Source: a virus | Taxonomy: Duplodnaviria; Caudoviricetes | Virus record (IMG/VR): IMGVR_UViG_3300025872_000280 | Span: 1 to 25,274 of that record | DNA length: 25,274 nucleotides | Strand: one strand, 5' to 3' | Shown here: piece by piece, positions 124 through 23,155 of the stretch | Layout of the letters: every line of letters begins with the position of its first letter | Position numbering within the stretch: position 1 is the stretch's first letter | Translations under genes and position numbers: made by a program | Notes under the pieces: generated by a model | What the model was told of the DNA's origin: nothing | Database searches by the model: none | What the model saw: the letters and a program-made list of their open reading frames with translations, nothing else

Positions 124-867
124 TCAAGTCCCCTTCGCGGCGCGAATCGCTGCTGCTTCCAACGCCTTCAGTCGGTCGATGGCACTGTGCAGAATCTTGA
201 CGGCTTCCGCAGTCGATTGGCCGCTGAGCGACCACGCCAAGTCCGCGCACTTCTTCGCCCGCCCCTCAGCATCCAAGTCCGCGCTGGGATCGGTGGGCGA
301 CTTCTTCGTGCGGATCCCGGCGTCCGCCATGGCCGCTTCCGAAGACTTCCCCGCAGCGCGTGCCGCATTGTAGTTCTTGGAGCGAGTGCGCAGAATCGAC
401 CCGATGGCATCCGGGTTCTTCTTGTCCTTGCGAAGTGCGCCAATGTTCGCTGCGAGAGCGTCCATAGGAATCCGGCACTCCTCCGCCGCCGCCGTTCCCA
501 TGGCGTCCAGTGCCGCCCCTGCGGCGATGGAACGGTAAACCGTCTTCGCATTCGGCGCGGCGCCGTTCGCAGCACTGGCCGCGATGAACCAGTCCGCGAA
601 GTTCGACCATCCGGCGACGGTGTGGTGACCGATCCGATACAGGCGATGCATGGCCATCGCGGCGCTCTTCGCGGAAGCCTCGATCCCGTCGAGCGCCTTG
701 CAAACGGTCAGGACGCCGCCGATGGCATCGTCACGCATCTTGCCGAGGTTGGAATCCCACGACTTGGGCGCAGTCTTCTCCGTCTTCGTCGGAACGACTG
801 CGGCGACTGCGGCGACTGCGGTGGCAGTTGCGGTCTCTGACTTCGTGTTGCGGTTCTTAGCCTTCAT
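124..867 (-). CDS. Basic, Ala-rich hypothetical protein (247 aa); probable first early gene and possible helix-turn-helix DNA-binding protein
   Basis: ATG at 867 is preceded by GAAAGG; the TTG at 963 used in the ORF track falls in the predicted -35 box. The segment LYRIGHHTVAGWSNFADWF...NAKTVYRSIAAG resembles the GY.TFE.Y...SR..AYRLI.A helical motif of DUF3102-like phage proteins (recalled, not searched). Confidence 0.75.
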   Translation of the reverse strand: MKAKNRNTKSETATATAVAAVAAVVPTKTEKTAPKSWDSNLGKMRDDAIGGVLTVCKALDGIEASAKSAAMAMHRLYRIGHHTVAGWSNFADWFIAASAANGAAPNAKTVYRSIAAGAALDAMGTAAAEECRIPMDALAANIGALRKDKKNPDAIGSILRTRSKNYNAARAAGKSSEAAMADAGIRTKKSPTDPSADLDAEGRAKKCADLAWSLSGQSTAEAVKILHSAIDRLKALEAAAIRAAKGT

Positions 868-935
868 GTTCTCTTGCCTTTCGCTTTGATCGATCCGGGC
901 CCTGCGGAGTTGCGGGGTTGCCGTCCGATGGATGC

Positions 936-963
936 ATCTTGCCAGTGAATCGGCGCGGTGCAA
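936..963 (-). promoter_or_regulatory. Putative host sigma70-type promoter
   Basis: TTGCAC-N16-CAAGAT with an extended -10 TG (TGgCAAGAT), about 70 nt upstream of the ATG at 867. This is where T7-like phages carry host-RNAP early promoters. Confidence 0.5.
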
Positions 964-9060: not shown

Positions 9061-12000
9061 TCAGTTGTCGAAGATCGACTTTTTCTTCCGTGTCTGCTTC
9101 TTGAGTAGGTTGAATTCCTCGGCAATCTCGGCTTCCGTGACATTCAGGAAATGCTTCATCGCCGGGAAGTTCTGGAAGGGAAGAAGAAGTCGGAACTTAT
9201 GGACAGTGGACTGGGTGATGTCTCTTTCCTTATCCTCGTTTCCAATTGCCCTCTGCACGGTTGCTCCGGCGACATCCTTGGTGATGTCCCAAGTCTTTGA
9301 AAGGAACGACTGCGCCGGGAACCCGTACCAGTTCAGACCGCTGTACCTGTAGGCCGAGAACAAGGGATCATCATCCACAGCGGCAGCCCATGCGGCATCA
9401 ACGGCCATGATCGGAAGGAAGAACTCGCTGGGTCCAGTGAAGGCTCCACGGACAAATCCCGCCGTAGTCAGCATTCTCTGCTCGATGTCCCTAGCCTTCT
9501 CATCGTCTCCTGTAGCACGGGCGCTGGCTGCATCACCAATCTGCCTAGCGTACTGGATGAGTCCAGCGAACAGCATGGTGGCCGTGATCTCCTGAGCCAC
9601 CCTAAGCCTTCCGGCGTTTCCTCCACGCTTGGCTCTGGTGATGTTCTGGAACAGGAAGTTGTCCACGCCCTTCAGGTTGAATCCACGGAACTGGGTGAGG
9701 AGACGCCCGTACCAAGTGAAGCCGATGCGGTGGAAGTCTCCACGGGTAGGCATATCCTGAATTCGAGTCCTGACCGCACGGTCAACGAACGCCCTCAGGT
9801 TGTCCATGCGCACATCGTTGATGTTGCGAAGGTCAACGATGCGTTCTCCGGCCAGACCGTTTCGAGTGACTGCATTGGCGCCGACGAACTGCACGATCTC
9901 GTCGTACTGAGCTGGCTCCAGTCCAAGGGTCCTGATGGTCGCGTCATCGAACCTGTTGGCAGCGTTGCGGGAGACATCGTACAGGTGCTGAATAGTCGAG
10001 GCGGCCATCAGGTTCTGCGTGAACGATGTGACCGGAGCAAGCAGTGTGATGTCCGAGAAGAAGTTGGACACCGAGTTCAGGCCACGAATGAACGGGTTTG
10101 TCTCGTCTCCTGCCTGATTCGAGATGTCCTGCATCAGGGCCCGCCTCAGGCGATCCGTGGACGGATGGAACCAGTGGTCCATCATTCCAGCGAAGTTTCT
10201 GGCGCCCTCGTCCATGTTGTTCCAGTTGCCGACCATCTCGGAGAGGATCGGCATCTGGCGAAGCATCGATCCCATTCCCACCGTACCGATGATTCGTGAG
10301 GTCTCTCCGGCTGCGACAAGGCCGAACATACCTCCGGTGGACAGGTATCCGAGCGGAAGCATCGTGCCAAGGGTCGCTGATCCCCAACGCTCGAATCCAG
10401 CAAGCTCCCTGTTGCTCCTGTGCAGAGGCTCGTACCGGAGAGCAGAGACGATTTCGCGGAACGCAGCCGTGGCCTCTTCGTTCATCGAGCCGCCCATGGT
10501 CGCATCTAGGTTGCCGATCCTGTTGATGGTTCCGATCATCGCCTCGATGCTGTCGATCTGCACGGGATTCCCGTTGACATCCAAGATCCCGTAGTGGGCC
10601 AGCTGTTCGTTGAACGAGTCGATGAACCTACGCTCGTTGATCGCCCCGTACACCGATACCGAGTACTTCTTCAGGATCGTCGGGATGTCGGTCACGGTGA
10701 GATCGGCAAGACTCAGGTTGCTTCGACCGATGTTCAGGAAGTCCTGAGCAGTCGCCATCGACGCACCTTCATCCATCATGATTCGCGCACGACCGAATGG
10801 AGTAGGCGAGGTTCCTCCGGGAGACACCGGACCCTGTAGGTTGTCGATGGCCCGTGCGATCTCGTCATCGATGTCGAGCAAAGGAGCTGCATCGGAATCG
10901 TTCGAGAGGCTGATGAGCCTGTTTGTCAGGACTCTGGCGGCCTCACGAACATCGGTGAGGTTGACCACCGCTCCCGTTTCGGTGACGATCTGCCTAGTTC
11001 CCGTTGCTCCTCCAAGCGCGGTAAACAGCAGATCCTCAAGAGCCTGACGGCCTTCAACGGTGGTGCCAAGCCGACCGATTCGATCCCATCGCCAGAGACG
11101 GGGGAAATAGTTCGCCACGGCGCTGGTCTGGAATCCACGGACTCCAGCTCCATTGGCCGCAGTGTGGATGTCGTTGAAGATCTGCCTGAGAGACCGTGCA
11201 GTCTGGTTCACGGCTTCACTGGGATGATTGAAAGTCCCGCTTCGGAGCTGCTGCACTACTGCGTTGTCAAACTCCTCCATCATCTGCCGCCTGTTCCGGC
11301 TGAATGCAGTCCGAAGGCTGTCCATCATGGTGATGCGGTCGCTTGCCCCACGGTTCAAGGCATAGCGGGTGTATCCGTTCCTCCAAGCAAGGAGACCAGT
11401 GGCCAGATGTCCGGTCATCTCGTAGGAGCCTTCCTCGAACACCGTGCGGCCCTGTGCGACATTCACGCCGGATTCGGTGGCAAGGGCCCTGCGGGCGTTG
11501 AAAGCCTCCCAGACGGCCATACGGGCTGCCGGATTACGGATACGGAGCACAACGGCTGCTTGGTTGAAGAACCTCTGAATGGGCCCGAAGGTGTCCGATC
11601 CACGGGCAATCGGGACTTCCTCCTGCATACGGCGGGCACCGTCGATTGAGGTTCCTCCGGGAGGAGCGTTCGGCGGAACTACCGCAGATCCGGCTGCTCC
11701 ACCAGTTCCCGCTGCACCACCACCTCCAGCAGCTGGTGGAACGGGCTGCGCTGCGGCAACACGGGTTCCGGGAACAGCAGGAGCTCCAGCATTGACCCGT
11801 GCTTGCTCCCTAGCCCTTGCTGCTGCACGGAGAGCTGCGAGACGCTGCCCGGTGTTCCGCACGGTCGTTCCAAGGGCCCGTGGGACATAGATGCGCCTAC
11901 CCTGATTACCGACACGGGAATTGATCACCCCGGCGACCTGAGCAAGCCGAGCACGGGAATCAAGGACTCGCTGTCCTCTGGAGTTCACCCTCATCGGAGG

Positions 12001-14310
12001 ATCCTGCATGATCGCCCGAAGGTCCTCGATGATCTCCTCGAACATATCCCGAGTGACCACCGTTCCACGGTTGCGGATCTCGTTGGCCACCTGAAGGATC
12101 AGTGAAACTCCGTCAGGATCGTCAAGTCCGTATACGGCTGATGTTCCAAGTCCCGGAAGGGCTTCTCCAGCCTCGTCAAGCCCGGTGTCGAACTGAGACC
12201 ACAGTCCATCGATGGTGTTGCTCCGCTGGACAAGATCATCGAACGACTGATCCAGTGTTCCGATGGAGACGGCGTTGCCGCTTCTTCGGACATCTCGGAT
12301 CCGCTGAACAACATCCTCTCCTAGGAACCTCTCGATGGTCCTGTAGACGCTGGATTCAAGCGATGCTCCACGAAGACCAGCGGCATGGCCAGCGAACAAG
12401 GCCCGCGCAATGGTCCGGGTCATCTCCTGATCGACCGTACCGCCTCGCCTTGAGATTTCAGCCGCAATGGTGAGGACGGCAGACCGGATTCCGTTGACGG
12501 CGTTGATGTTCTGCTGGGCCGCCGCTGCATATCCAGTCCTCCTAGGAGGCGTGTACACGGTGGTGCCGTCAGCAAGAGTCCTGCGGCTCCATCCACGGCC
12601 CTGAAGCATCTCCCGGACACGGCCAACCTCGGTCGGATCTGCGTCTGCCCTAACCGAGATCGCCCTGATGTTCTCTCGAAGCTGCCTCCATTGTCCCCTG
12701 TACTGGAACGCCACATCGCCCTGCTCTGCGGCGGCAAACAGACGATCCGACTGAACGAAGTCTCCTCGAAGATTCCGAGAGTCAAGCTCAATCTCGATTC
12801 CGGTTCCGCGACCCTGACCTCCCGGATACAGATTGCGGTCGATTGCCACATCGTCGCCAAGGCCAGCAGCAAGCTCCCTAGCGCCCCTACGGTTCGTCAT
12901 GAAGACGCCGGAAGGACGGAGCTCCTCGGGAATCCCTGCACCCCTTCGGATGCTTCTGGCAAGCTCTCCACGCGGCCTAAGGCGATTTGCAGCCGCAGCG
13001 ATGACTCCACGCCATCCGCCACGGTTTCCACCAAGGATCTGCCTGATCAGGTTTTCGTTACCCGGCGTGTACATCGCTTCGCCAAAGCTGGCTGGACGGA
13101 CATCTCCTGCAAGCATGGATGCACCGACTTCGTCGGCACGGTTGGCGACATTCTCCCCCTGAAGGATCGGAAGACCAACGCTCTCCGTTCCGGGAACATT
13201 CTCGCGCCCGGTCCTTGAGAAAGCCTCGTAGGCATCGTCAGCGATGTTGTCGATGGTTTCCCCGACAGGAGCGACGGTCTGCCCAAGCAAGGTGCGGTCT
13301 GCGGCTGCCGCCGTGACGAATGCAAGCGGGCTCCTGTAGTGGATGACCCGGTTTCCAGCCCTGATCTGATGGAGATATCTGTTGGCGTAGCTCTCAACGG
13401 CATCGCTGTAATAGGCGCGGGCCGCGAACGATCCAATGGCCCCTCCAAGACCAGCGGCAAGGACGCCGTCAAAAGCCAGCGTAGACGCATCCGGGTCGTA
13501 GGTGGGATCGACTCCGCTTCTGGCGATCTTGATCGCGATTTCCTCAGCGACTCCCAGAGCCGCATACTTCCGCATACCCGCAAGACGGGAGACCGTTTCC
13601 GCAGCCTGTGCGGCTTCCTCGGACACGCGAACCATGTTTCCCCAACGCTCGGCTGAGGACCTCAAGGCGATCCGTCCTCCAGCAAGGGACATCGCCCTTC
13701 CTTCGGAAAGGAACGCAAGCGGCTCAAGAGCCATGCTCATGTTCACGATTGCTGCGGTATCCCCAACGAATCCAGCGATCTTTCCCGCTGTGCTTCCCTG
13801 AGCGGCAAATTCCGGCGTTGCAACACGGACCTGATCGAGCTTGTCCTGAAACTCTCCGTAGCTCTTGGATCCAAGAAGCCACGGCCAGTTCTCCGAAGAG
13901 ACCGACATCAGGTCGCTGGTGATGCCCTCAAGGTTGTTCAACCCTTCTTCTCGATGCGGGGCAAACGCCTCAAGTCCACGGTTGTCAGCCACTGGGTTGA
14001 ACGGATCGTACTGCTTGGTCTTCTTCTGGTTGAAGTTGAGCGGAGCTAGGTACGCCTCATCGTCGCTCGTAAGCTGGTTGAACTGCCTCTCTAGGTAGTA
14101 GGTGGCCTTTCCGGTCCAAGACGAGACAAGACCGCTCATGAACGGACCAAGGGTGTCCGTCATCGCCTTGATGTTGCTCTCTACAGGAGGATTGAGCTGA
14201 AGCTCCTGCTCGTAGCTGTATCTCTCCGCAGCCGACATCAGATCGACTGGGCTTTGGGTCTTGAGGATCCGCGTGTCGAACAGCGGTCTGCTTGAGCTTG
14301 TCTGGTCCAT
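9061..14310 (-). CDS. Large internal virion/ejection protein (T7 gp16-like, 1749 aa)
   Basis: Largest ORF, located between the gp15-like gene and the tail fibre. Cys-free and helical, with NYFPRLW and GRLLTQFRGF motifs as in gp16-type C-terminal regions. Confidence 0.85.
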   Translation of the reverse strand: MDQTSSSRPLFDTRILKTQSPVDLMSAAERYSYEQELQLNPPVESNIKAMTDTLGPFMSGLVSSWTGKATYYLERQFNQLTSDDEAYLAPLNFNQKKTKQYDPFNPVADNRGLEAFAPHREEGLNNLEGITSDLMSVSSENWPWLLGSKSYGEFQDKLDQVRVATPEFAAQGSTAGKIAGFVGDTAAIVNMSMALEPLAFLSEGRAMSLAGGRIALRSSAERWGNMVRVSEEAAQAAETVSRLAGMRKYAALGVAEEIAIKIARSGVDPTYDPDASTLAFDGVLAAGLGGAIGSFAARAYYSDAVESYANRYLHQIRAGNRVIHYRSPLAFVTAAAADRTLLGQTVAPVGETIDNIADDAYEAFSRTGRENVPGTESVGLPILQGENVANRADEVGASMLAGDVRPASFGEAMYTPGNENLIRQILGGNRGGWRGVIAAAANRLRPRGELARSIRRGAGIPEELRPSGVFMTNRRGARELAAGLGDDVAIDRNLYPGGQGRGTGIEIELDSRNLRGDFVQSDRLFAAAEQGDVAFQYRGQWRQLRENIRAISVRADADPTEVGRVREMLQGRGWSRRTLADGTTVYTPPRRTGYAAAAQQNINAVNGIRSAVLTIAAEISRRGGTVDQEMTRTIARALFAGHAAGLRGASLESSVYRTIERFLGEDVVQRIRDVRRSGNAVSIGTLDQSFDDLVQRSNTIDGLWSQFDTGLDEAGEALPGLGTSAVYGLDDPDGVSLILQVANEIRNRGTVVTRDMFEEIIEDLRAIMQDPPMRVNSRGQRVLDSRARLAQVAGVINSRVGNQGRRIYVPRALGTTVRNTGQRLAALRAAARAREQARVNAGAPAVPGTRVAAAQPVPPAAGGGGAAGTGGAAGSAVVPPNAPPGGTSIDGARRMQEEVPIARGSDTFGPIQRFFNQAAVVLRIRNPAARMAVWEAFNARRALATESGVNVAQGRTVFEEGSYEMTGHLATGLLAWRNGYTRYALNRGASDRITMMDSLRTAFSRNRRQMMEEFDNAVVQQLRSGTFNHPSEAVNQTARSLRQIFNDIHTAANGAGVRGFQTSAVANYFPRLWRWDRIGRLGTTVEGRQALEDLLFTALGGATGTRQIVTETGAVVNLTDVREAARVLTNRLISLSNDSDAAPLLDIDDEIARAIDNLQGPVSPGGTSPTPFGRARIMMDEGASMATAQDFLNIGRSNLSLADLTVTDIPTILKKYSVSVYGAINERRFIDSFNEQLAHYGILDVNGNPVQIDSIEAMIGTINRIGNLDATMGGSMNEEATAAFREIVSALRYEPLHRSNRELAGFERWGSATLGTMLPLGYLSTGGMFGLVAAGETSRIIGTVGMGSMLRQMPILSEMVGNWNNMDEGARNFAGMMDHWFHPSTDRLRRALMQDISNQAGDETNPFIRGLNSVSNFFSDITLLAPVTSFTQNLMAASTIQHLYDVSRNAANRFDDATIRTLGLEPAQYDEIVQFVGANAVTRNGLAGERIVDLRNINDVRMDNLRAFVDRAVRTRIQDMPTRGDFHRIGFTWYGRLLTQFRGFNLKGVDNFLFQNITRAKRGGNAGRLRVAQEITATMLFAGLIQYARQIGDAASARATGDDEKARDIEQRMLTTAGFVRGAFTGPSEFFLPIMAVDAAWAAAVDDDPLFSAYRYSGLNWYGFPAQSFLSKTWDITKDVAGATVQRAIGNEDKERDITQSTVHKFRLLLPFQNFPAMKHFLNVTEAEIAEEFNLLKKQTRKKKSIFDN

Positions 14311-14325
14311 GTTTTTAGGGGCCTC

Positions 14326-17064
14326 TTAGAACTTGGGCTGGATCGGACTGAGCGACTTGCGGCGGAATGTTTCGGTCTTCTTTGCCTTCGCCCGCTTCTC
14401 AAGATCAACCATGAAGGAAACAACCTTCTCACGGGGACTCTGAGCATCACGGATGATGTTTCCATCCGCATCTCGCGGCTTTTCCCGGCTGACGATGTCC
14501 TGAATGGTGTAGTAGCCGTCCTTCATGGCGTTTCCTGCGGAATCGCGGAACGCGAACACGGGTTCTCCGTTCGGAGCGTTGTCAACCCAGACAAGCGTGG
14601 CTCCCTTCTCAAGGGCATCGGTGCCGAGCTCGACTCCGATGAATGCCGCGATGTAGCTCTCGGTCACTCCATGGGGAGCAAACGCATCCTTCGGAAGGAC
14701 CGCTCCGTTGACGATCATCGAGTTATCTAGGACATATTGCCTAGCGTTCTTCATCGAGGTCTGAAGAGCACCGCTTGTAGACGCCATTTCCTCAACGAAC
14801 TTTCGAGTGAACATCGATGCAGCCGACTTCCGGGCATCTGGGTTCAGTTCGATTGCCGGATCAACGAACGGAATCCAATCAGCCCAGCCACGCCATCCCT
14901 TGAGGGCCAGATCCTTCAACGTTTCATCGACCTTCAGCCGATACGCTTGCATATCCGTCCCGTTCTTGTTGATGTCAGTCAAGGACAGGATGTCGGCTTC
15001 CGCGTCCATGTTGAGGGACTGAGCTGCATCGCGCACGGCGTCTGGAAGAGACATGACTCCGCTGCTCCACTTGACGGAAGCAAGCTGTAGGAACTTGAGT
15101 GTGCGGGCTCCACGGTCTCCCATCTTCGGAAGAAGGATGTCGAGCGGAGAGCGTCCTCCAGCCGAGTTCTTGTAGAGAATCACAAGATCAGCAAGTTCCG
15201 GCCTGAGTCCGCGCTCGACATCCACGCTGATTCCATTCAAGGCGATCCGGCGGATGGACTCAAGCCTGTCCTCAAGGTCGAAGTGAAGGGCTGCCTGAAT
15301 CTCGTTCATCTTCAGGCTCATTCGGATCTGGTCCTTCAGCTGCCTGACATCGGCGGAATCCTGAGAAGACGGAGTAAGGTCTGAAAGTCCGTACTTAGCC
15401 ATGGCCGCCTCGGGTGCGGAATTGAGCCAGTTGTTGACCTCGACCTTCACAGCGTCGCGGATGTCCTTCTTCTTCGCATCCTCCGAAACGCGAAAGGATT
15501 CAAGCTGGGATTCAAGCTTGTTTCGCAGCGATCCAAAGTCCACGATCTCCTGCCCATTCCATTCGGAGGACTTCGGAATATTCCTGCCCTCAAGAGGATC
15601 GAAAAGGTTCCTGATGATCAGCGTCTTCGTGTTCCGGTCAGCCATTTCCCGGCCTTCGCGAGTGGCGTTGTTCCAACGCTCGTTGAACTGATCCCACATC
15701 TTCGCCTGATCCTCGATGCTCAGGTACTTGAATGCAGGGGTCAGCTGGGTTCGCCATTCATCTAGGTACTTTCCATACGAAGCATCTGCGTTTCCAGCGG
15801 CTGAATCGTTCATCGCGTCCTTGTACGCATTGGCCGCCCACGCAGAGACAATCTGGGTTTCACGCGACTTACCAAGCTCGAACCTGTTCTTCTGAACATC
15901 TTCGCGAGCCGCAAGGAGCATGGACTTCACTTCGGAGACATCGATGAGCTTTCCGGTTCCAGCCTTCAGCTCCGAAAGAATCGCCTCGGCTTCGTATGTA
16001 AGTCCGCTGCTCTTCATCGCCTCGATGAGATGGCTGGCCGTGGCGAGGTTTGCGACCCGTGGGAGACCAAGGCTCTGACCGAGTTCATCAAGGTATCCCT
16101 GAAGGTCCGGGACGATCTTGTCCTTCAAGGTGCTGTAGAACGGGCTCTTCCCCTCCCTCATGCGCTTCATCGCATGGTCGAAGATGAGTTCCCGATCCAC
16201 CGGATCAAGCTGGTCAAGGATGGACTCGGGCGTAGCGTCAGGCGGGGCATAGACAATCGCCTCGCGAGCTTCAAGAGAAAGTCCCGGAACAAGAAGCGGA
16301 ATCTGAGTCTCGACGCCGTCGAACTGGACCCCAATAGAGCGTTCAGTGACCAGCGATCCGTCTGGGCCGTACTGAGCCCCGTAGAATCCAATGTCCTTGG
16401 GAGTCTTGTCCTCGCGAAGACCAAAGTCTGGAACCTTTCCAAACGCGGTCACTGCCTCATCGACCTTCAGCCTCAGAGAATCGATGATCTTCTTCTGGTT
16501 GTACTGTCCAACGGCATCGGCGTGTTTCGCGCTCTGCTCGATGAGGAATGGGTTGAACTCCTTGTAGAAGGATCGGCTGAGATACTGGGAAGTGCCGAAC
16601 TCGGCGTTCTTCTGCTCCGCGAATGAAGCCGCCAGAGCGTCGAAGAACTGGTTGTCCTTCAGCAGCTCGGGGTTGTTCAGCACAGCGTTGTCGTAGGCCG
16701 TCTTGAAGTCGTTGCGGGCCTTTGCAGCCTCAAGGACACCGGAAGCCTGTTGCGCTCCCACGGCAAGCCACGGATTCTCGGAAGGCTTGATCTGCCCGCT
16801 TCCCACAAGATTCGCGTATGTCTTCCTGTTCTGGTTGACGAGGTCCTGACCAGCTAGGAAATCCTGCTCGTTCTGCTGCGTCTTGATCGTAGTGGCGAAC
16901 TTCGCGGCAGTCTGGGACAGGTTGCTGAATGCGTCAGCGAACTCGTATGCGTTCCTGATCGCCCCTTCGTCAATCGGCTCGACGGTCTTCCGTGGGTCGA
17001 TTGGAGCCACAAAGGTGCTGACCGGGCTGGCCGCTACTCCGAGAGATGGTCGTTGCTTTGCCAT
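14326..17064 (-). CDS. Internal virion/ejection protein (T7 gp15-like, 912 aa)
   Basis: Synteny and size; N-terminal P.A.PVSTFVAP and G.I.PSENPW motifs; Cys-free and helical. Confidence 0.8.
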   Translation of the reverse strand: MAKQRPSLGVAASPVSTFVAPIDPRKTVEPIDEGAIRNAYEFADAFSNLSQTAAKFATTIKTQQNEQDFLAGQDLVNQNRKTYANLVGSGQIKPSENPWLAVGAQQASGVLEAAKARNDFKTAYDNAVLNNPELLKDNQFFDALAASFAEQKNAEFGTSQYLSRSFYKEFNPFLIEQSAKHADAVGQYNQKKIIDSLRLKVDEAVTAFGKVPDFGLREDKTPKDIGFYGAQYGPDGSLVTERSIGVQFDGVETQIPLLVPGLSLEAREAIVYAPPDATPESILDQLDPVDRELIFDHAMKRMREGKSPFYSTLKDKIVPDLQGYLDELGQSLGLPRVANLATASHLIEAMKSSGLTYEAEAILSELKAGTGKLIDVSEVKSMLLAAREDVQKNRFELGKSRETQIVSAWAANAYKDAMNDSAAGNADASYGKYLDEWRTQLTPAFKYLSIEDQAKMWDQFNERWNNATREGREMADRNTKTLIIRNLFDPLEGRNIPKSSEWNGQEIVDFGSLRNKLESQLESFRVSEDAKKKDIRDAVKVEVNNWLNSAPEAAMAKYGLSDLTPSSQDSADVRQLKDQIRMSLKMNEIQAALHFDLEDRLESIRRIALNGISVDVERGLRPELADLVILYKNSAGGRSPLDILLPKMGDRGARTLKFLQLASVKWSSGVMSLPDAVRDAAQSLNMDAEADILSLTDINKNGTDMQAYRLKVDETLKDLALKGWRGWADWIPFVDPAIELNPDARKSAASMFTRKFVEEMASTSGALQTSMKNARQYVLDNSMIVNGAVLPKDAFAPHGVTESYIAAFIGVELGTDALEKGATLVWVDNAPNGEPVFAFRDSAGNAMKDGYYTIQDIVSREKPRDADGNIIRDAQSPREKVVSFMVDLEKRAKAKKTETFRRKSLSPIQPKF

Positions 17065-17079
17065 TGTGTTGTTCCATTA

Positions 17080-17760
17080 TCAGAAGGTCGGCATACCTCG
17101 GACCCAGCTCCCACCGCTAGTGCCGCCAGCAAGACCACCCACACTCGATCCCGTCTGCCTTACTCCAAGAGATCCGGGATTTGGGCTTCCGAAGGCCGAG
17201 TTCATCATCATTCCGACCTGAAGTCCGCTGCTGATTCCATTCATCAGGATTGCGCCCATGCTGACATTCGCAGGAGGCGGCAGAGGAGACGGATACCCGG
17301 AGTTGATGATGCTCTGCCCACGGCTGTAGATGGCCTGAGCCTCACGGTTTACCTGTGCGGTCAGGTTGCTGATATTCCTGATCGCAGCAGACTCGAAGTC
17401 GAGCACATCGCGTTCAAACTGATTGTGAATCATGTCCACGGTGCGTCCTTCGATCCCGGTCTCGGCGGTGATTGCCGCATAGCTGGCCGAAGCCTGACGA
17501 GAGTCTCGGGTGATGTTCTGAAGTTCCTGCTTCTGCGCGTCGATCTGCTGGATCCTCTGGGAGAACAGCGCATCCGTCTGCAAGCCCACATCGCGCCGAA
17601 CGCCTTCCACGGTCTGGATGTAGGCTTCATTCTGGGCTCGCGCAAGATCTCCCCTATAGCGGTTCTGCGCCCTTGCTGCGGAACTGGCGGCCTGACCTTG
17701 GGCCACAGTCTGTCCCACGCCGACGAGAACGCCGACTGTTGCGCTTACTGGGTCACACAT
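17080..17760 (-). CDS. Internal virion protein (T7 gp14-like, 226 aa)
   Basis: The true start is MCDPVS at 17760, a typical gp14 MC.P start followed by a hydrophobic Gly/Ala segment. Has a Gln/Ala-rich coil and an AETGIEGRTVD motif. Confidence 0.85.
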   Translation of the reverse strand: MCDPVSATVGVLVGVGQTVAQGQAASSAARAQNRYRGDLARAQNEAYIQTVEGVRRDVGLQTDALFSQRIQQIDAQKQELQNITRDSRQASASYAAITAETGIEGRTVDMIHNQFERDVLDFESAAIRNISNLTAQVNREAQAIYSRGQSIINSGYPSPLPPPANVSMGAILMNGISSGLQVGMMMNSAFGSPNPGSLGVRQTGSSVGGLAGGTSGGSWVRGMPTF

Positions 17761-18217
17761 TGTTTTGGATCCTGATGAACTGGTAGAAGAGACGCCGCTC
17801 GAAACCGTAGTCCGGGTGTTCGGAGATGAAGGTGAACCCAAGCCAGTTGAGCCACCTGATGTGCACGGTGTTCCGTGCGTCAATGAAGTTGTAGAGGATC
17901 GGGTAGGTCTTCTGAAAGCTGGCTACCCACTCCTTGGAGATCCTTAGAAATTCAAACTTATGGCTGTGGATATGGCTGCTTCCCAACATCCATATCCGTC
18001 CAATTGAAGGGTTCTCCTCCTGCACGATGCCGAACATACACAGGATCTTTCCTTCAGCGGACATCGTGTAGCATTCGTCTGAAACCTCTATTCCGGTAAG
18101 CAAGGCTTCCGTAGGAAACTTGCCTCCTGCTGCCATGACTTCTGAAGCATCCTCTGGACGCAGATCAGGAGCGAGGATGAAGGCGTCCTCTTTGACCGAT
18201 TGCCTGATTTCAATCAT
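17753..18217 (-). CDS. T7 gp13-like protein with a GNAT acetyltransferase-like fold (154 aa)
   Basis: LRPED..EV.A, G.IWMLGS, and L.NFIDARNTVHIRWL.WLGF.F motifs; position directly after tail tubular B. Confidence 0.85.
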   Translation of the reverse strand: MIEIRQSVKEDAFILAPDLRPEDASEVMAAGGKFPTEALLTGIEVSDECYTMSAEGKILCMFGIVQEENPSIGRIWMLGSSHIHSHKFEFLRISKEWVASFQKTYPILYNFIDARNTVHIRWLNWLGFTFISEHPDYGFERRLFYQFIRIQNNV

Positions 18218-22630: not shown

Positions 22631-22957
22631 TCAAGAAGGTGAAACTTCCTTAGACTCGTCTTCATCAACGAAGCGGGGAGGTACGCAGTACCAGCCTTCG
22701 GGAATGACCACACTGTTGTCACTGAGTGTCCACTCGCCGTTGATCAGGAGGTAGACCTTGGTCTTGCAGTTCGGGCCCACCCTGATCGGGCTTGCCTCCG
22801 GGATGAACACGGCTCTGCTGCACCCACTTGCGGATCCGAGAACCAGCACGACGAAGCAGAACAGGATCCCGATCAGCAGAAAGTGCAGTGCGTGAGAACT
22901 GGTAAGCCCGTACAAGCGACTCAAGAATCCCAAGGATGATCGCCTTGAGGATCCCAT
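22631..22957 (-). CDS. Lipoprotein, o-spanin (Rz1)-like; start uncertain (ATG 22957, or TTG 22924/22915)
   Basis: Hydrophobic FLLIGILFCFVVLVLG followed by lipobox-like ASG|C, then a Pro-containing 63-aa mature part. Overlaps 22719..22961 in another frame. Confidence 0.7.
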   Translation of the reverse strand: MGSSRRSSLGFLSRLYGLTSSHALHFLLIGILFCFVVLVLGSASGCSRAVFIPEASPIRVGPNCKTKVYLLINGEWTLSDNSVVIPEGWYCVPPRFVDEDESKEVSPS

Positions 22958-22961
22958 TCAC
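22719..22961 (-). CDS. 80-aa protein overlapping the lipoprotein gene; i-spanin (Rz)-like (MNGILKAIILGILESLVRAYQFSRTALSADRDPVLLRRAGSRIRKW...)
   Basis: GTG at 22961 overlaps the holin stop as GTGA and has a G-rich RBS. It is the C-terminal part of ORF-track frame 22719..23468 and starts with a hydrophobic/amphipathic helix. Confidence 0.55.
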   Translation of the reverse strand: MNGILKAIILGILESLVRAYQFSRTALSADRDPVLLRRAGSRIRKWVQQSRVHPGGKPDQGGPELQDQGLPPDQRRVDTQ

Positions 22962-23155
22962 TTGGCCCCCGCGTCCTCGCTGGAGACATTGTTGTCCCGA
23001 GCGAAGATCAAGCCGATTCCCGCCATGATTGCGCTTGCCGTCACGGCGACATCGAGCGTGGTATTCGGGTCGTTGTCGAAGAGTGCGGTGAGAGCGGCCC
23101 CGACTGCGGTCAGGACTGCCGCGATTCCTGTCACTGTGGTCTTCCAAGACTTCAT
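22958..23155 (-). CDS. Two-TM small membrane protein, putative class II holin (65 aa)
   Basis: MKSWKTT..G start, two hydrophobic segments separated by DNDPNT, charged C-terminus, and a strong TAAGGAG RBS. Confidence 0.75.
   Translation of the reverse strand: MKSWKTTVTGIAAVLTAVGAALTALFDNDPNTTLDVAVTASAIMAGIGLIFARDNNVSSEDAGAK

Follow-up and report, generated by a model that had tools for sequence, protein, structure and literature searches.

Why would a giant phage protein be almost free of lysine throughout its middle and carry normal lysine at both ends? The question is raised by one open reading frame (ORF) in a 25,274-nt stretch of DNA from a tailed virus (Caudoviricetes), here called the window, the whole of which was analysed. 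An initial annotation had recognised the product as a gp16-like ejection protein and proposed that its cytoplasm-exposed part had exchanged lysine for arginine to escape a host defence directed at lysines.

Lysine content of the gp16-like protein

The ORF encodes 1749 amino acids, among them 26 lysines and no cysteine. Counted in the translated ORF, residues 262–1546 contain two lysines versus 24 in the 464 flanking residues, so that two lysine-free gaps of 952 aa (residues 262–1213) and 331 aa (residues 1216–1546) are formed. The desert, its boundaries and its coordinates had been given exactly by the initial annotation, with lysines confined to residues 17–261, 1214–1215 and 1547–1744. The protein is laid out as follows.

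9061..14310, minus strand: gp16-like ejection protein (internal virion protein D), named from its position in the module and from fold matches
13528..14310, minus strand: residues 1–261, lysine-normal N-terminal part with 11 lysines between residues 17 and 261 (K261 at 13528–13530), containing a family-wide hydrophobic segment at residues 185–203
10672..13527, minus strand: first desert, residues 262–1213, with no lysine and 109 arginines, beginning just ahead of a hydrophobic segment at residues 278–296
12511..13110, minus strand: accessory alpha/beta domain, about residues 400–600
11611..11820, minus strand: Gly/Ala/Pro linker, residues 831–900, the insertion site of cargo domains in relatives
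10666..10671, minus strand: K1214–K1215, the sole lysines of the desert, adjoining the invariant Y1216
9673..10665, minus strand: second desert, residues 1216–1546 (331 aa), with no lysine and 30 arginines, making up the helical core together with residues 905–1213
9061..9672, minus strand: residues 1547–1749, lysine-normal tail with 13 lysines between residues 1547 and 1744, starting at the invariant K1547 (9670–9672) and ending in a basic C-terminus

When 26 lysines were placed at random 20,000 times, the largest gap was 658 residues, and a gap of at least 952 never occurred. The Lys/(Lys+Arg) ratio was 2/141 in the desert versus 24/52 in the flanks (Fisher p-value 4e-14). Arginine made up 11.4% of the first gap and 9.1% of the second; GC content was 0.60 and 0.58 in the gaps, and 0.57 and 0.55 in the flanks. 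A lysine codon is one base away for 288 of the 1285 desert codons. Szulc et al. define a lysine desert as a continuous lysine-free stretch of at least 150 aa, or of at least 50% of the protein; the 952-aa gap is 54% of the 1749 residues.

Assembly error was ruled out, as contigs of runs X2 and X3 carry a nearly identical gene, reproducing it almost letter for letter (29 of 30 and 30 of 30 bins, respectively). The main X2 and X3 pieces, among those listed, differed from the window by zero or one letter. Part of the region was present in 20 runs of 13 studies, most of them with a freshwater or aquatic label, and one of these runs may be the source of the window. No RNA data set containing the region was found among the runs listed.

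Identity, fold and predicted topology

The structural genes of the window form a T7-like module that comprises portal, scaffold, capsid, gp11, gp12, gp13, gp14, a pair of large genes with no family match, tail fibre and terminase. The gp16-like gene stands where a T7-type gp16 gene is expected, after gp13, gp14 and a gp15-sized gene and before the tail fibre. Its neighbours are the following.

17080..18217, minus strand: gp14 (PF24072) and gp13 (PF11090) genes, which fix the T7-type ejection module
14326..17064, minus strand: gp15-like protein of 912 aa with 7.0% lysine evenly spread, named by position only and used as an internal control

No Pfam or PHROG match was obtained for the gp15-like protein. 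Near-complete relatives encode a T7-type RNA polymerase, a DNA polymerase and a primase-helicase. The gp15-like and gp16-like proteins (window 9061–17064) lack cysteine altogether, and most gp16 homologues have none or one.

The predicted model of residues 895–1749 had a pLDDT of 72.8. Its best PDB match in Foldseek was the T7 core chain 9jyy_I (E-value 6.7e-6, but TM 0.24), which we take from its chain length to be T7 gp16. The BFVD matches were models of internal virion protein D (TM 0.55–0.65), and residues 915–1522 aligned to residues 515–1206 of the T7 chain (VIA Z 10.7, rmsd 4.9, 305 aligned). A sequence search of solved structures returned nothing under E 0.1. Gene order and the gp16-C fold matches agree on the identity given by the initial annotation, and together they predict a T7 gp16-type ejection protein. 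Like T7 gp16, the protein is the last of a gp13–gp14–gp15–gp16 module before the tail fibre, shares the helical C-terminal core fold and has basic residues near its C-terminus. It differs in its length (1749 aa versus 1318 aa), in having no sequence match to the solved chains and in bearing accessory domains with no transglycosylase detected. The N-terminal lytic transglycosylase of gp16 is present in T7 and absent in P22-like phages. In the gp16-like protein it had no Pfam or PHROG match; the model of the N-terminal half is weak (pTM 0.34), and fold searches with it were uninformative.

According to the available text of PMC8954989, residues 1–228 of T7 gp16 are modelled as periplasmic, 243–410 and 1119–1290 as putative membrane regions, and 411–1118 as the cytoplasmic DNA-binding part (gp16-C), with only the N-terminal part observed. 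By analogy, residues 1–261 of the gp16-like protein are likely periplasmic or membrane-entering, and the desert would span T7's modelled cytoplasmic domain plus about 100 residues of the putative second membrane region. The idea that the desert boundaries follow cytoplasmic exposure is thus supported by the overlap with this modelled domain and has to be corrected at the rear boundary, which lies inside, not before, the putative second membrane region. The hydrophobic segments at residues 185–203, 278–296, 1569–1587 and 1619–1637 are only moderate or weak (family mean 0.8–1.5), the latter two being moderately hydrophobic tail helices, and another weak segment (1328–1346) lies inside the desert. 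Given these segments and the weak model of the N-terminal half, the topology is a prediction by analogy with T7.

A predicted topology leaves room for an agent that acts elsewhere or later: a periplasmic lysine-specific protease met in transit, or conjugation to new gp16 at head assembly of the type performed by Bil (bacterial ISG15-like). In either case gp15 or the tetramer would shield the two ends of the protein. In the available text of PMC10557695, Bil modifies a virion structural protein during assembly and conjugates to lysine. However, gp15 likewise passes through the periplasm after synthesis in that cytoplasm, and its lysine content in desert phages is 4.7–7.3%; the N-terminal 260 residues of the gp16-like protein keep their lysines. 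We consider such an agent distinctly unlikely.

Lysine loss compared with homologues

We compared 46 homologues of the gp16-like protein, of which 17 sequences (including the query) formed the desert set and 20 others the comparison. The Lys/(Lys+Arg) ratio was 0.03 in the desert set versus 0.39 in the others for residues 601–830, and 0.05 versus 0.36 for residues 901–1546. In the flanks it was 0.38 and 0.46 in the desert set versus 0.29 and 0.49 in the others. Total Lys+Arg was lower in the desert set (10.5% versus 12.8%; 13.5% versus 16.4%). K1214 is kept in 16 and K1215 in 12 of the 17 desert proteins; retained so widely beside an invariant tyrosine, the pair is likely to be functionally required.

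At 13 core columns with lysine in at least half of the 20 others, the desert cells held arginine in 134 of 221 cases and lysine in 24, while four matching tail columns retained lysine in 62 of 68 desert cells. The lysine-to-arginine changes at aligned sites that the initial annotation expected were therefore found. So was the enrichment of AGA/AGG, present in 62 of 212 cells at former lysine sites versus 40 of 262 at conserved arginine sites, in nine related loci that are not independent. In nine comparisons with the lysine-normal sisters P0015 and P0019, lysine was replaced by arginine 13–20 times versus 16–21 times by other residues, and the latter were at least as frequent in eight of the nine pairs. 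As lost lysines turned into other residues as often as into arginine, the pressure acts mainly against lysine. An excess of other-to-Arg over Arg-to-other changes in seven of the nine pairs implies that some arginine was gained too. Arginine thus prevails at conserved-lysine columns as had been claimed, but the replacement is no pure swap.

Could base composition or decoding account for the pattern? In the available text of PMC13696103, lysine deserts are usually explained, if not by selection, by GC bias. AGG is frequent in the gp16-like gene. However, locus GC overlaps between 13 desert loci (0.50–0.59) and normal loci (0.46–0.62), both flanks and the neighbouring genes are normal, and the adjacent gp15-like gene has its 7.0% lysine at a GC content of 0.56, which upholds the earlier statement that the desert is independent of GC. 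Lysine is also at normal levels in gp15, capsid, nozzle and terminase of desert phages, and makes up 5–12% of their RNA polymerase, DNA polymerase, helicase, exonuclease and SSB. A code change with AGG read as lysine was rejected: AGG occupies 26 of 262 conserved-arginine cells, and the gp15 gene contains 63 AAG codons. A neutral origin by GC bias, chance or recoding has, in our judgement, a negligible probability. Lysine codons in the window are nearly all AAG (221 versus 10 AAA in six non-gp16 genes); this preference is shared by most lysine-normal relatives and is thus a family trait unrelated to the desert.

Repeated switching across the family

A total of 72 family members of at least 820 aa, including distant ones from a profile search and leaving out the near-duplicates P0002 and P0004, were bimodal: 32 were desert proteins (core Lys/(Lys+Arg) 0.02–0.19) and 40 were normal (0.26–0.54). 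Equal deserts in all homologues, which would have spoken against the reading of the initial annotation, were accordingly not seen. The tail (C-terminal 200 residues) contains 9–16 lysines in the desert members and 5–15 in the rest of the 72. On a Lys/Arg-masked tree (a quick tree with two long-branch warnings), the desert state changes at least nine times.

The lysine-normal P0015 and P0019 were each sister to a desert clade on another tree with lysine and arginine masked, and also in regional trees. A single clade of the 17 desert proteins was rejected (p-AU 7e-67), the group having been defined by lysine counts and tested after the first tree. Recombination was likewise rejected as the origin of the lysine-normal sisters or half-deserts, since their placement agrees among four regional trees, except that the tree of the short tail deviates with weak support. 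P0015 and P0019 have 15 lysine positions in common, a fraction of 0.41 versus 0.35 expected for their distance; the overlap fits retention, though parallel regain may also have occurred. No DNA loci for P0015, P0019, P0024 or P0026 were present in the viral contigs searched.

Among 103 remote gp16-like proteins, two had a ratio below 0.15, both being lysine-poor in the head as well, and a regional purge was not seen. Judged from these proteins, a regional purge is not general to gp16.

The main rival explanation is a biophysical preference, dependent on host or habitat and needing no enzyme, for arginine over lysine in crossing the inner membrane of a particular host or in gripping and moving DNA. 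Arginine-rich peptides cross membranes better. The desert roughly matches the part of T7 gp16 that crosses the inner membrane and binds DNA in the model, and both the arginine at conserved-lysine columns and the arginine gain in sister pairs point the same way. However, accessory domains and linkers are also almost devoid of lysine, roughly half of the lost lysines became something other than arginine while total Lys+Arg dropped, and the distribution is bimodal with an empty interval between 0.19 and 0.26, 40 of the 72 relatives working with normal lysine. We regard this preference as unlikely, though as a serious contender.

Maintenance by selection

Substitutions were counted in diverged pairs, the normal ones being four of eight chosen pairs. 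Between the window and L005, both with deserts, one of 265 changes involved lysine, and 545 of 1020 identical residues were recoded. The other diverged desert pairs gave 0/203, 1/462 and 2/68 lysine-involving changes, and the normal pairs 28/319, 3/50, 22/141 and 48/346. Desert pairs with 200–460 differences and zero or one involving lysine show that the desert is maintained by selection against lysine.

Lysine does return between close relatives: it accounts for 4 of the 18 differences that separate P0001 from P0002, 10 of 111 between L078 and L007, and 7 of 97 between L007 and L085, and is often encoded by the rare AAA. In runs X6 and X8, R1007K is a segregating variant. Six relatives (P0022–P0027) show the purge in residues 901–1546 only, with normal lysine in 262–830. 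The constant target of the purge is the helical core (905–1546), which is purged in every desert lineage. Lysine-rich cargo, half-deserts and the return of lysine in close strains suggest that selection per site is modest, or relaxed in some lineages.

Accessory and cargo domains

The 400–600 domain is lysine-free in the window's protein and absent from most lysine-normal relatives; the wider matching region holds 11 and 16 lysines in P0015 and P0019, respectively. An ADP-ribosyltransferase fold was rejected for this domain (0.3% probability by profile comparison with ART-PolyVal inserts), and its match to Tpt1 was weak (Z 4.2, rank 35).

ART-PolyVal (PF18760) inserts occur in P0022–P0025 and weakly in P0046, with about 40 lysines in the ART-bearing inserts. 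P0020 and P0022 carry cargo with an HExxH motif, which along with ART-PolyVal resembles a polyvalent-protein style cargo site in gp16. No cargo family was recognised in the window's own gp16-like protein. Six-base in-frame insertions at window positions 11719–11720, in the Gly-rich linker, were seen in runs X6 and X8, so that the length of the cargo site varies among members of the species.

A GNAT-like insert at the 831–900 linker was found in three desert proteins, P0004, P0007 and P0012 (atlas score 0.94; PF00583 in 27% of the cluster), with 12, 19 and 3 lysines in the three copies. Lysine-rich inserts (11–19 lysines) sit inside three desert proteins. The GNAT-like insert is carried by near-identical phage strains, L003 (P0081) included, and the 3-lysine copy may reflect amelioration toward the desert. 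These inserts raise the alternative of self-protection: an enzyme of the phage itself, for example a GNAT acetyltransferase that travels as cargo in gp16 or in another part of the virion, would otherwise modify lysines of the core. However, the window's protein and most desert proteins have no such insert, and two of the three copies are themselves rich in lysine. A scan of 51 early-region ORFs and 45 accessory representatives, many of which have no family, revealed neither E1, E2 or Ubl proteins nor any other recognisable lysine modifier. We consider self-protection very unlikely.

Search for the host and possible lysine modifiers

T7-like phages of the desert family probably infect diderm hosts. 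The nearest phage records (61% TerL and 34% RNA polymerase identity) did not yield a host, and protein cluster names were uninformative on the host. PF03136 had no match in G006, the only bacterial assembly holding a relative; this relative is a lysine-normal phage contig and probably a binning passenger. One assembly match, L068, was obtained, and its 40 relatives had no TerL match. UBact occurs in Planctomycetes, Verrucomicrobia and Nitrospirae. A Planctomycetota marker test gave no signal anywhere, controls included.

Among the scanned ORFs of the window, G003, G004 and G005 (L009, L065, L027, L069–L071), none was recognisable as an endolysin or another peptidoglycan hydrolase. The host might contain little peptidoglycan, or a lysin may have escaped recognition. 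Between the scaffold and capsid genes lie a holin-like 65-aa membrane protein (22958–23155) and a lipoprotein-like 108-aa ORF (22631–22957). A 279-aa Ala/Lys-rich ORF without a family match (124–963, minus strand) ends the window's genome, and similar ORFs end related genomes. In L070, a 209-aa ORF between helicase and DNA polymerase (9233–9862, minus strand) looks cohesin-like by eye, with no Pfam match and four homologues.

Discussion

The desert is real, selected and repeatedly evolved, with nine or more gains or losses in the family, and we infer its cause. A fixed structural need would not switch and a genome-wide cause would hit other genes, so a host-dependent external agent is the best fit; we lean, by a little, towards an attack, present in certain hosts only, on lysines of the gp16-like protein just after its injection. 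Such hosts would modify incoming phage proteins at lysine, by a covalent tag or by acylation, or cleave them there. The central region would be the cytoplasm-exposed DNA-handling domain after injection, kept lysine-free by selection that switches between lineages; its cytoplasmic placement is suggested by the T7 model and by the inserted cargo, whose domains would depend on NAD+ or acetyl-CoA. At injection, the attack would meet few, irreplaceable, refolding copies with only the central region exposed, which would explain why lysine is kept in the ends of the protein, in gp15 and in abundant later proteins. As the core (905–1546) is always purged, and cargo and sometimes the front half are not, the modification probably stops the DNA-moving core itself and does not act by delivering the whole chain to a proteasome. 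Candidate agents may include Pup-type ligation (PMC13696103), E1/E2/Ubl conjugation as in Bil (PMC10557695), acylation and a lysine-specific protease.

Known systems offer partial parallels. In the parts of PMC13696103 available, the catalytic A chains of AB toxins follow a like logic, in that lysine is scarce solely in the portion that enters the cytoplasm of the target cell and GC is no explanation; however, they evade the eukaryotic ubiquitin/proteasome system with experimental support, whereas the target here is bacterial and there is no homology. Lysine deserts are enriched in Mycobacterium phages (available text of PMC10665810). Deserts of Actinobacteria and Mycobacterium phages fall under the same definition and have prompted the same hypothesis of evading a bacterial lysine tag (PMC10665810, PMC13696103, as far as their available text goes), but that enrichment is proteome-wide and confounded by GC, whereas ours concerns one gene region, is GC-independent and has near-matched normal sisters. 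The 2026 review, in its available part, describes phage lysine loss as defence evasion as untested and as confounded by GC and shared ancestry (PMC13696103). Polyvalent proteins, in the available text of PMC5512222, are virion-delivered giants with ART, GNAT and metallopeptidase cargo; relatives of the window's protein carry ART-PolyVal and the GNAT-like insert, but the protein itself has no recognised cargo family. Bil ubiquitination is an anti-phage conjugation to lysines of a virion protein, but the target described in the available text of PMC10557695 is no ejected protein: Bil acts on the central tail fibre while the virion is assembled. No report of a lysine desert in an ejection protein was found in the full-text literature searched, mostly without subscription papers. 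Lysine deserts in themselves are already known; what is new is a bimodal, switching trait across a family.

The family removes both confounders, GC and shared ancestry, by offering one gene region with normal flanks and neighbours, lysine-normal sisters and at least nine changes. It suggests a defence that operates during injection, and P0017 versus P0019 is a ready test pair. The broader proposal, which we advance tentatively as falling somewhat short of probable, is that in some aquatic hosts a bacterial defence marks or cuts phage-protein lysines at DNA injection, and that phages escape by erasing lysine from the exposed ejection machine, repeatedly and reversibly. If this is true, the Lys/Arg profile of gp16 would read out ejectosome topology and host defence state from sequence alone, and regional lysine loss in ejection or tape-measure proteins could flag such hosts.
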